Of a DNA stretch of 64,000 nt, positions 1-16,690 are shown piece by piece (positions within the stretch are counted from its first letter, which is position 1; each line of letters opens with the position of its first letter). A program made the position numbers and the translations under genes. The stretch lies in assembly GCF_030013595.1 (NCBI RefSeq), contig NZ_CP122768.1; one strand, given 5' to 3'. This stretch comes from Escherichia coli (GTDB lineage Bacteria > Pseudomonadota > Gammaproteobacteria > Enterobacterales > Enterobacteriaceae). A model generated the notes under the pieces. That model was not told the DNA's origin. It did no database searches and saw only the letters and a list, made by a program, of their open reading frames with translations.

Positions 1-10
1 TTTCTCCTGT

Positions 11-36
11 AAATAAAAAAGGGCCACCAGCGGCCC
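11..36 (-). terminator. putative intrinsic terminator
   Basis: GGGCC/GGCCC inverted repeat at 21-36; the plus-strand A-run at 11-20 gives a U-tract for minus-strand transcripts. Confidence 0.4.
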
Positions 37-162
37 GTAAAAAACAACACCCCGTCAAAGGCACCCGCAGATACCTTTTGTGTGGTGTATTCAGATTTGA
101 CATACGCTGAGCAGGGCGAAGAAATGAAAAAGGCCCGCAGTAGCGAGCCATGAAGAAACTGA

Positions 163-190
163 ATAAAAAAAAACCGCCTGGTACGGCGGT
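163..190 (-). terminator. putative intrinsic terminator downstream of the tRNA array
   Basis: ACCGCC/GGCGGT hairpin at 173-190 preceded on the plus strand by A9, i.e. a U-tract on the minus strand. Confidence 0.55.
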
Positions 191-453
191 TAAGATGAAT
201 TTCCAGGTTTTGCTTAATACGTGATTAATCTCAACGTTTTTTATAGATGTTAACAACATCGGAATGATGCATCACCGGCCCTGTCAGGAAATACAACATC
301 TCCACCGATAATGCACCATTACGCTGTTGTAAAAAGACAGCACTGGGCTGTAACCGATATCACGTATTACAGAACAGGATGTGGATAAAGATTCAGGAAA
401 ACATCCCACATATAATATGTCAGTGCCCAAAACAACCTGGTATCGTCTACTGC

Positions 454-528
454 TGGAGCGGGTAGCGGGAATCGAACCCGCATCATCAGCTTGGAAGGCT
501 GAGGTAATAGCCATTATACGATACCCGC
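454..528 (-). tRNA. tRNA-Gly, anticodon UCC
   Basis: reverse complement folds as a 75-nt tRNA: anticodon stem TCAGC/GCTGA, loop CTTCCAA, T-loop GGTTCGATTCC, 3' CCA; near-identical to host glyT as recalled. Confidence 0.85.
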
Positions 529-15102: not shown

Positions 15103-15154
15103 TGTTCAACCGTCGCCAGTTGTCGTTGGTATTCTGCAACTGGCGCGTTCCGGA

Positions 15155-15433
15155 GTGATAACCATGAGCGAACAGTACCTGATAACGCTCGACGAGTGGA
15201 AACCAAAACGGTTCAGTCTCCCAATAACAAACACCACCCTGGTGAAATACGGAAAACTAGGATACATCGTTCCAAGACCACAAAAAATTCGTGGGCGTTG
15301 GCTGATAGATCGCCGGGCAGTATTTGTTGGACCTGGTGAAACAGGAATTGCGCCGGAAATTCATACTGGCGATGATGATGCACTGAAGGAGATTTTAACT
15401 CATGTCACCGAGGCCACGAAAAAACAGCACTGA
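15155..15433 (+). CDS. xis: excisionase (Xis)
   Basis: lambda-Xis-like N-terminus (…LITLDEW…RPQKIRGRWL…), directly upstream of and overlapping int. Confidence 0.7.
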   Translation: MITMSEQYLITLDEWKPKRFSLPITNTTLVKYGKLGYIVPRPQKIRGRWLIDRRAVFVGPGETGIAPEIHTGDDDALKEILTHVTEATKKQH

Positions 15434-16520
15434 CGTAGCCGGTCTTTACGAAAAGTTTGATCGCAGAACTGGCAGGGTTTACTACCAGTATAAAAACCCT
15501 GTGACTGGAAAATTTCACGGACTCGGAACAGACAAAGGTAAGGCAGAAAAAATCGCTTCCACAGCCAATCAGCGAATAGCTGCAGCAGAGGCTGAATATT
15601 TCATGCGCAAAATTGATGAAAGTCCGTCAGCAACAAAACGTCGGGGTATCAGATTAAAGGCATGGGTTGATCGATATCTGAAAATACAGGACGCGCGACT
15701 GAAAAATGGAGATATTGCAGCTACAACTCACAAAGAAAAAGCCCGAATGGCTGCATACCTGGTTTCCCGTCTGGGAAACCACCCATTGAAAGAACTGGAA
15801 GTAAGAGACTTTGCATTAATACTGGATGAGTGGCTGGATAAAGACATGGTCAGCACAGCGAGAGTAAATCGCGGATTATGGGTTGATATTTATAAAGAAG
15901 CACAGCATGCAGGGGAAGTTCCTCCTGGATGGAATCCTCCGGAGGCTACCCGTAAACCGATCCCTAAAGTAACCAGAGCCAGGCTCACCATGGAAGACTG
16001 GCAAAAAATTTACAATGCAACGCCTGAAAAACACTTTATCCGTAACGCAATGCTTCTTGCGATTGTTACTGGTCAGCGCCGTGATGACATTTGCCACATG
16101 CGTTTTTCAGATGTGTGGAACGAACACTTGCATATCACCCAGGGAAAAACCGGAATGCGTCTGGCGTTACCGCTTACACTACGCTGTGATGCCATTGGGA
16201 TAACGTTAAAAGAAGTTATTGATGGGTGCCGAGACAGAATATTAAGTCCATATCTAATCCATAGTCGGCACCAGAAACAACCGAAGCCGATGAGTAAAGA
16301 CAACCTGAGCGACTACTTTGCCAAAGCACGGGATCTGGCTGGGATAATTCCACCAGCAGGAAAAACTCCGCCAACATTTCATGAACAACGCTCTCTATCA
16401 GAACGGCTGTACCGTGCACAGGGTATCGATACAAAAACATTACTAGGACATAAAGTCCAGGCAACCACCGATCGCTATAACGATACTCGAGGTCAGGAAT
16501 GGGTTAAGTTGGTTATTTGA
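15402..16520 (+). CDS. int: tyrosine-type site-specific integrase
   Basis: 372-aa ORF with an integrase-typical C-terminal region (…HEQRSL…LLGH…TDRYND…), next to the chromosome junction. Confidence 0.85.
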   Translation: MSPRPRKNSTDVAGLYEKFDRRTGRVYYQYKNPVTGKFHGLGTDKGKAEKIASTANQRIAAAEAEYFMRKIDESPSATKRRGIRLKAWVDRYLKIQDARLKNGDIAATTHKEKARMAAYLVSRLGNHPLKELEVRDFALILDEWLDKDMVSTARVNRGLWVDIYKEAQHAGEVPPGWNPPEATRKPIPKVTRARLTMEDWQKIYNATPEKHFIRNAMLLAIVTGQRRDDICHMRFSDVWNEHLHITQGKTGMRLALPLTLRCDAIGITLKEVIDGCRDRILSPYLIHSRHQKQPKPMSKDNLSDYFAKARDLAGIIPPAGKTPPTFHEQRSLSERLYRAQGIDTKTLLGHKVQATTDRYNDTRGQEWVKLVI

Positions 16521-16570
16521 CAAACACCATATGGAATATCCGTCACCATCTCAGGAAAAAAGTGTTGTAA

Positions 16571-16690
16571 AATGCGTGGCCTAGTTTTGGGGAAACGTTT
16601 TGGAGAGATTTTGGAGAAAGGAAAAAATTGAATAAATTCAAAATCCTGAAAGTGTCCCGCCTTATGAATAAGAAGGTGGAACTCGAATGA
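16571..16690 (+). pseudogene. potB: displaced 3' end of potB at the prophage-chromosome junction (att region)
   Basis: reading frame ends …SRLMNKKVELE with TGA overlapping the potC ATG, matching the recalled PotB C-terminus; upstream codons are not PotB-like; potA and the 5' part of potB are absent. Confidence 0.55.

Follow-up and report, generated by a model that had tools for sequence, protein, structure and literature searches.

The potC locus of Escherichia coli is a known insertion site for prophages. It is occupied in O157:H7 outbreak strains, for example as 'prophage 5 (potC)' of UK strains (PMC10925052), and it is named as an insertion site of Shiga toxin (Stx) phages, including those of Shiga toxin-producing E. 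coli (STEC) negative for the locus of enterocyte effacement (LEE), in earlier work as cited in PMC8065619. The dicBF locus has been reported from many different E. coli prophages (PMC5069750). Here, we analysed a stretch of 64,000 nucleotides from E. coli contig NZ_CP122768.1 (the window), in which positions 1–16664 very probably form the integrase-proximal half, from Q to int, of a temperate lambdoid prophage inserted at the 3' end of potB. Both the kind of prophage and its insertion site are already known, and the element is an ordinary one.

The potB/potC-site prophages of strains JMK_KBN3987, HCP5S3_I2 and ETEC1730, together with O157:H7 'prophage 5' and the Stx phages, are of the same kind as this element. 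They share with it the 372-amino-acid (aa) integrase with an Arm-DNA-binding domain, the excisionase, a 14-bp attachment (att) core, the orientation of int towards potC and the general gene order. Parts of the element are 82–98% identical to these prophages, and its exonuclease-xis-int block is up to 100% identical to that of draft assemblies. However, no complete genome searched has the same set of immunity (DicA/DicC allele), replication (DnaT-domain O-like and lambda P-like) and nin genes, and none of the complete-genome records reaches 80% coverage of the first 20 kb. A 0.9-kb DUF2335 module, which in some relatives separates int from the junction, is also missing from it.

The Qin prophage of K-12 (dicC-dicA-ydfABC-dicF-dicB-ydfD-ydfE-intQ, with rem, hokD and ydfU) contains homologous genes in the same order, with the identities given in Table 1. 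Qin, however, is located elsewhere, between ydfJ and rspB, and has a different integrase, the pseudogene intQ. Its ydfB/ydfC, relBE and flxA genes are absent from the element, the Q protein of the element had no BLASTP match to Qin ydfT, and Qin has only fragments (ydfX, ydfE and intQ) where the element has intact replication genes, exonuclease, xis and int. The preliminary description of this DNA had called the prophage Qin-type. This is true for the dicC/dicA/dicB region, in which DicA, DicC and DicB all scored above the NCBIfam cut-offs with 62–89% identity to K-12, but not for Q, the replication genes and the nin block, which were not Qin-like by BLASTP.

The insertion site at the 3' end of potB

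In K-12, potA-potB-potC-potD are contiguous. The alignment of the window with K-12 potB-potC showed that the homology starts at position 16665. When K-12 potA, potB and potC were searched against the whole window by BLAST, potB was represented only by nucleotides 803–828 of 828, which were found at 16665–16690 with 100% identity, and no other potB and no potA sequence was detected. The int gene adjoins potC, which gives the prophage its orientation in the window, and the junction between them consists of a phage arm followed by TGAATAAGAAGGTG, GAACTCGAATGA and potC, with the potB-derived part at 16665–16690.

The core was defined by aligning both junctions of HCP5S3_I2, the empty K-12 site and the window, and the alignment was repeated with the independent far junction of AP027411. 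The identity block common to both junctions of the relatives and the empty site was the 14-bp sequence TGAATAAGAAGGTG, which sits 12–25 nt upstream of the potB stop codon and is present as a single copy in the window. A 601-bp probe of the int-side junction was matched by empty-site genomes only from its position 416, corresponding to window position 16665, and a 301-bp probe of the far junction only as far as the final base of the core. As the alignments and both population searches agree to the base, the crossover, which had been proposed for location within 16520–16700, can be placed exactly in the 14-bp core at 16665–16678.

Two suggestions of the preliminary description were borne out by these results. 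An integrase had been proposed to target the 3' end of potB, and a lambda-type int indeed abuts the core in potB, with the core duplicated at both ends in relatives; the displaced terminus had been proposed to be retained at this junction, and it corresponds to the potB remnant found by BLAST. The number of PotB-like codons before potC, given as about 11, was overstated, as the potB DNA amounts to 26 bp, or 8 codons plus stop. The frame entering potC reads ...KVSRLMNKKVELE compared to ...RASRLLNKKVELE in K-12, in which only N-K-K-V-E-L-E-stop is potB DNA. The S-R-L encoded by the phage arm was considered as a conserved mimic of PotB and rejected, because related arms read L-H-L or L-Q-L; judged from these sequences, the match is treated as coincidental.

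By the lambda convention the int-side junction, on the right in the orientation of the window, is attL. At the far junction of the relatives, potB reads ...L-N-K-K-V and continues into phage-encoded S-E-L-D-D-stop or S-D-I-D-N-stop, replacing E-L-E-stop, and potB is annotated as intact by RefSeq in HCP5S3_I2. Judging from these relatives, lysogens retain an untruncated potB, as a substitute tail of five codons in the coding 3' end is provided by the phage.

A comparable arrangement is presumably found in phage 21 and the element e14, which we take to integrate in the 3' coding end of icd and to supply a replacement end. As in these elements, the core lies in a coding 3' end and the arm gives substitute codons and a stop. 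Unlike in these elements, the swap is very short (ELE to five codons), a 14-bp core is used and an operon is divided by the insertion into potAB and potCD.

Integration would be of the Campbell type, with lambda-type Int and Xis acting at TGAATAAGAAGGTG in the end of potB. The phage att site would carry its own short potB end, so that potB would stay a complete open reading frame (ORF) at the far junction with ELE changed to SELDD or SDIDN, reading ...CTGAATAAGAAGGTG followed by phage AGCGA(A/T)(T/A)TAGAT(G/A)ATTAA. The original 26-bp potB end, with the potC Shine-Dalgarno sequence and the ATGA overlap, is left before potC, and the prophage would thereby cut potC-potD off from potA-potB and the promoter of these two genes. 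Excision would yield a restored potB-potC junction, ...TTGCTGAATAAGAAGGTGGAACTCGAATGA..., and an attP circle containing ...CCTTATGAATAAGAAGGTGAGCGA....

The integrase itself is full length and of the lambda type. It matched lambda Int (1z1b) with a phmmer E-value of 3e-54 over residues 26–371, and the catalytic R, K, H-x-x-R, H and Y were all kept in the alignment, in which the motifs TGQRRDD, GKTG, FHEQRS, LLGHK and DRY aligned with TGQRVGD, SKTG, FHELRS, LLGHK and SQY of lambda. These motifs presumably correspond to R212, K235, H308/R311, H333 and Y342 in lambda Int numbering. Its Pfam architecture is Arm-DNA-bind_1 plus Phage_integrase. The presence of an arm-binding domain at the N-terminus is shared with lambda Int, and xis lies directly upstream of int and overlaps it in both, whereas the core and target are different, being inside potB rather than in the intergenic region between gal and bio.

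An assembly chimera, in which the end of a prophage contig was joined to the potC region, could also produce such a junction, and draft assemblies of close relatives do break inside the prophage. We consider this extremely unlikely, as the identical int-core-potC junction was found in 1391 of 5426 complete E. coli genomes (at least 26%, a lower bound because relatives with the 0.9-kb module between int and the junction are left out) and several independent draft contigs were 99.5–100% identical across it. One particular far-junction arm was found in 959 complete genomes. The prophage had initially been regarded as strain-specific accessory DNA, which is correct relative to K-12 but not for the species, given this level of occupancy.

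Gene order, relatives and activity of the prophage

Genes were called by combining an ORF listing, PHROGs, NCBIfam at curated cut-offs, ARAGORN, Rfam and BLASTP against the K-12 Qin proteins, while the Pfam labels were taken from near-identical public contigs (L022 and L020) or identical proteins. Read from the junction, the order is int, xis, exonuclease, dicB operon and DicA, then DicC, YdaT, O-like, P-like, nin-like genes, RusA and Q. This is the canonical module order of a lambdoid prophage, with a divergent repressor/Cro-type switch between two early operons, and the early and regulatory gene order proposed previously for the first 16.6 kb was recovered by PHROGs, NCBIfam and BLASTP (Table 1). 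The best-supported description is that of an element with a P22 immC/Qin-like DicA/DicC switch, lambda-like replication and Q-dependent late control. The remainder of the window, 16690–64000, belongs to the conserved core of E. coli; it extends from potCD to flgK by way of rne (with the rne 5' untranslated region element), SraB, ptsG and fabF, and is covered at 100% in more than 5400 genomes.

From the DicC/DicA switch, an early operon on the plus strand would run through ydfA, the dicF slot, dicB, ydfD, the exonuclease, xis and int. The minus-strand operon would comprise dicC, ydaT, the O-like, P-like and nin-like genes, hok/sok, the DUF968 gene, rusA, Q and the tRNAs and, from the relatives, would run on into lysis and structural genes beyond the start of the window.

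In the complete relatives HCP5S3_I2, JMK_KBN3987 and ETEC1730, the order is potA-potB, core, tail/head/lysis genes, Q to int, core and potC. Among complete genomes, window positions 1–2000 were matched most closely by ETEC1730 (97.0%), where the match is again to a prophage at potB/potC. In this relative, the holin gene stops 6 bp short of the base that aligns with window position 1, and past it lie an endolysin gene, terminase, HK97-type head and lambda-like tail genes and the far junction. In HCP5S3_I2, a lambdoid prophage of about 45 kb lies between potB and potC. On the basis of these relatives, we infer that the far junction, the late genes and an intact potB are also present in this genome.

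HCP5S3_I2 (NZ_CM149870.1, L004) has a backbone 99.9–100% identical to the window and carries a different mosaic prophage at the same site (3696–49089), with a serine/threonine kinase-phosphatase pair, insertion sequences (IS) IS4 and IS3 in the head/tail genes and, separating int from the junction, the 0.9-kb DUF2335 module. This mosaic suggests rapid turnover of prophages at the site, or rapid exchange of their modules. That a strain so close in its backbone differs in its mosaic at this position indicates that resident lambdoid prophages often exchange modules through homologous recombination. Exact protein matches of RusA, Q and a nin-region protein were found in many unrelated mosaics, and those of the exonuclease in near-identical draft contigs. 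Two draft contigs were 99.9–100% identical to the window, GCA_025624855.1 over 2595–25102 and GCA_028039635.1 over 8307–25102, and both carry prophage DNA next to potC and end inside the prophage.

The early region itself could have come by homologous recombination with another lambdoid phage or prophage, replacing modules of an older prophage whose int and att junction were already at potB, in which case the junction would not stem from integration of this phage. We consider this quite possible, though somewhat short of an even chance. Among complete genomes, even the best matches account for no more than 76% of the first 20 kb, broken into 7–8 pieces with 82–98% identity, the HCP5S3_I2 backbone carries its different mosaic, and the exonuclease-xis-int-potC block is common, at 99.5–100% identity, to contigs with differing immunity and replication modules. 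Such recombination, however, concerns the history of the modules, not the identity of the element, and is fully compatible with a prophage integrated at potB. The site-specific origin of the junction is unaffected by it, since the 14-bp core is duplicated at both ends.

Whether this copy is active is a separate matter. The DicA-type repressor of the element is without an S24 peptidase domain, while many relatives at the same site carry HTH (helix-turn-helix) plus S24 repressors of 214–238 aa (for example, in contigs L028 and L029), and it is unlikely that this copy, if it is induced at all, is induced by RecA-stimulated self-cleavage. The prophage may still be inducible. A defective (cryptic) remnant like Qin, which has a deleted, rearranged or IS-disrupted late region, has lost the ability to form phage and persists for its cargo of hok/sok, dicB and tRNAs, is the rather unlikely alternative. 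The late region lies outside the window, the type of repressor is that of the defective Qin, and decay at the same site is seen in HCP5S3_I2 (the IS4 and IS3 insertions and split head genes), in ETEC1730 (a frameshifted tape-measure gene) and in L009 and L011 (strongly deleted late regions beside potB). On the other hand, all of the approximately 25 early ORFs in the window are uninterrupted and have the same lengths as in relatives, the integrase keeps its catalytic residues and arm-binding domain, xis is present, and the closest relative has holin, endolysin, terminase, head and tail genes just left of the position of the window start.

Several points weigh against the interpretation of positions 1–16664 as half of a complete temperate prophage at potB. 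Because position 1 of the window already lies within the prophage, the late genes, the second core and potB/potA are seen only in relatives, and the closest draft contigs also break inside it. No true attP from a virion genome was found, as the 'phage' records with this integrase are prophage predictions that contain host potC-potD. The absence of the S24 autocleavage domain from the repressor, as in the defective Qin, makes inducibility uncertain. Finally, no sigma-70 promoter or intrinsic terminator was predicted by a scan of the plus strand between int and potC; the scan shows only this lack of predicted signals, and potCD would be transcribed by read-through from int or the prophage. An improbable further reading, weaker than the small-RNA reading of the dicF slot given below, is that the phage arm has been shaped so that int read-through sustains potCD expression in the split operon.

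The dicF slot and the other genes of the element

For the region between ydfA and dicB, it was initially proposed that a ydfA-dicF-dicB-ydfD operon was present. The genes ydfA, dicB and ydfD were identified, but the canonical dicF was not found by Rfam: there was no match to the DicF family at the gathering threshold, at E ≤ 1 over positions 9000–13000 or, when the 131-nt slot was searched by itself, at E ≤ 10. The 53-mer of K-12 dicF was also absent in a pattern search allowing up to 3 mismatches. A canonical dicF was therefore rejected, as the three Rfam searches and the pattern search were all negative. Compared to K-12, the dicF flanks are almost unchanged, over about 115 nt on the upstream side and about 180 nt on the downstream side, and the 53-nt core is swapped for a shorter, diverged sequence. 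Of 5426 complete E. coli genomes, 107 (approximately 2%) have this allele, which is unannotated there.

The 3' part of DicF pairs with ftsZ (PMC5069750), and this part is among the positions changed in the slot allele. In a crude test, the predicted duplex of the slot variant with the ftsZ leader had −31.0 kcal/mol, which was reached by 81 of 300 shuffles and so did not exceed the shuffled controls, compared to −38.5 kcal/mol for K-12 DicF, reached by 21 of 300 shuffles. The slot could either hold a form of DicF with an altered seed or simply be a terminator, and it is treated here as a diverged element rather than as dicF. It is improbable, although conceivable, that the slot encodes a distinct prophage small RNA (sRNA) with a DicF-like processing context and terminator architecture, another seed and other host targets. 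Directly upstream of dicB, the leader at 11995–12151 on the plus strand gave a sub-threshold match to STnc100, a Salmonella sRNA family in Rfam (34.5 bits, gathering 47, E 5e-5), and this stretch is also conserved in K-12 Qin.

Elsewhere in the plus-strand operon, the phrog_2151 gene occupies the place of ydfB and ydfC in Qin, and the exonuclease combines a RecE/YdfE-like N-terminal region with an Rv2179c-like 3'-5' exonuclease domain at the C-terminus.

The O-like initiator has an HTH at the N-terminus and a DnaT-like domain at the C-terminus. Within its gene, at 8684–8880, direct repeats were found, consisting of 4 copies of about 24 nt around CCGTTTTTGGGT and 3 copies of the 14-nt TTTGGGTGTCTTTG. 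By analogy with lambda, in which ori is inside O, these iteron-like repeats are a candidate origin of replication. For the P-like gene, the true start is likely to give a protein of about 180 aa.

The hok/sok system was identified from a Hok ORF and an overlapping antisense sok RNA, which scored 108 bits in Rfam against a gathering threshold of 59. Between hok and the Rem-like gene, at 3835–3936, there is a perfect 9-bp tandem repeat (ACAAACAAT × 11.3), which gives a spurious 'LYCLYC...' ORF when read on the minus strand. The copy number of this repeat varies in the otherwise 99.9–100% identical public contig L022, which is the behaviour of a variable-number tandem repeat. The four tRNA genes form a cluster that sits between Q and the lysis genes, and the one with the CAT anticodon is presumably a lysidine-modified tRNA of the ileX type.

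Table 1. Features of the prophage and its junction with potC in the window; identities are to the K-12 proteins or genes named.
Feature	Position	Strand	Evidence
Four phage tRNA genes, downstream of Q	454–763	−	ARAGORN; Rfam tRNA; RefSeq annotation of 97%-identical ETEC1730 stretch
tRNA Gly-TCC	454–528	−	ARAGORN
tRNA Thr-TGT	532–607	−	ARAGORN
tRNA Lys-TTT	610–686	−	ARAGORN
CAT-anticodon tRNA	688–763	−	Met by ARAGORN; tRNA-Ile in RefSeq annotation of 97%-identical relative
Late antiterminator Q, 229 aa	974–1663	−	phrog_304 E 1.7e-108; PF06323 on identical protein
RusA Holliday-junction resolvase	1660–2025	−	phrog_34 E 3e-56; PF05866
DUF968/YdfU-family HNH protein	2027–3085	−	phrog_96 E 1e-163; YdfU 80%
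92-aa phrog_1212 protein	3087–3365	−	PHROGs
Rem-like 86-aa protein	3432–3692	−	Rem 69%
hok/sok type I toxin-antitoxin	4109–4433	−	hokD 4109–4264 (HokD 100%, BLASTP); sok RNA 4262–4433 (Rfam)
nin-region equivalent, small genes mostly without known function	4555–7642	−	PHROGs; Pfam labels on contig L022
nin members of 131 aa and 227 aa; two 93-aa ORFs	within 4555–7642	−	
DUF551-type gene, nin-like block	4950–5573	−	
DUF4406 gene, nin-like block	6954–7250	−	
DUF977/Ren-like gene, nin-like block	7247–7642	−	
Lambda P-like helicase loader	7672–8337	−	phrog_109 E 1e-62; PF06992 Phage_lambda_P on L022
O-like replication initiator	8126–9241	−	phrog_1032 E 2e-89; PF17948 DnaT; NCBIfam DnaT partial match
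YdaT-family protein, cII position	9138–9689	−	phrog_163; YdfX fragment 91%; PF06254
DicC, Cro-like regulator	9673–9900	−	NCBIfam NF007282 168 bits > 130; DicC 84%
DicA, 135-aa HTH repressor, divergent from dicC	9977–10384	+	NCBIfam NF007257 237 bits > 101; DicA 62%
ydfA (DUF1391; likely 10587–10739) and 212–216-aa phrog_2151 gene	10533–11389	+	PHROGs; BLASTP (YdfA 94%); Pfam
Small antisense-oriented ORF, phrog_4274	11390–11671	−	Called as 69 aa in relatives
dicF slot, diverged stem-loop and U tract	11938–11990	+	Alignment with K-12; Rfam negatives; fold −16.6 kcal/mol, z −5.6
dicB, cell-division inhibitor	12174–12362	+	NCBIfam NF049927 129 bits > 100; DicB 89%
ydfD (DUF1482)	12359–12562	+	phrog_1092; PF07358; YdfD 73%
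820-aa exonuclease	12640–15102	+	phrog_607/20376; PF06630 and PF16473; NCBIfam ExoVIII partial, under cut-off
Excisionase	15164–15433	+	phrog_629 E 5e-26 (PHROGs match on ORF 15155–15433); RefSeq 'excisionase' in relatives
Lambda-family tyrosine integrase (372-aa type) with arm-binding domain	15402–16520	+	PF09003 and PF00589 on same gene in L020
Phage arm of int-side junction	16521–16664	+	Alignments; promoter/terminator scan
14-bp att core TGAATAAGAAGGTG, potB codons N-K-K-V	16665–16678	+	attB/attL/attR alignments; population boundaries
Last 12 bp of potB, E-L-E-stop	16679–16690	+	Stop overlaps potC start (ATGA)
Intact potC, flanking host gene	16687–17481	+	NCBIfam PotC 485 bits > 326; potC 97.1%

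Distribution of modules and significance

No stx gene was found in the visible part of the element (window 1–16664). In another public contig, GCA_030346515.1 (L033), RIP and SLT_beta genes (Shiga toxin A and B) are located at 15554–16789, between Q and the holins, and this contig shares with the window the 131-aa nin-region protein and the replication module of DnaT-type O and lambda P. As Stx genes are carried there beside shared modules, the module pool from which the element is drawn includes Stx-converting phages.

The analysis marks the border between core chromosome and accessory DNA in the window, and its value lies mainly in the correct annotation of this region. The diverged allele of the dicF slot provides a small lead for research on prophage sRNAs.

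To summarise, the att core of a very common family of E. coli prophages was defined to the base, which could aid prophage typing and assays of Stx-phage insertion at potC. In this family, potB is, on the evidence of the relatives, not inactivated by the insertion, yet potAB and potCD are parted by the prophage.

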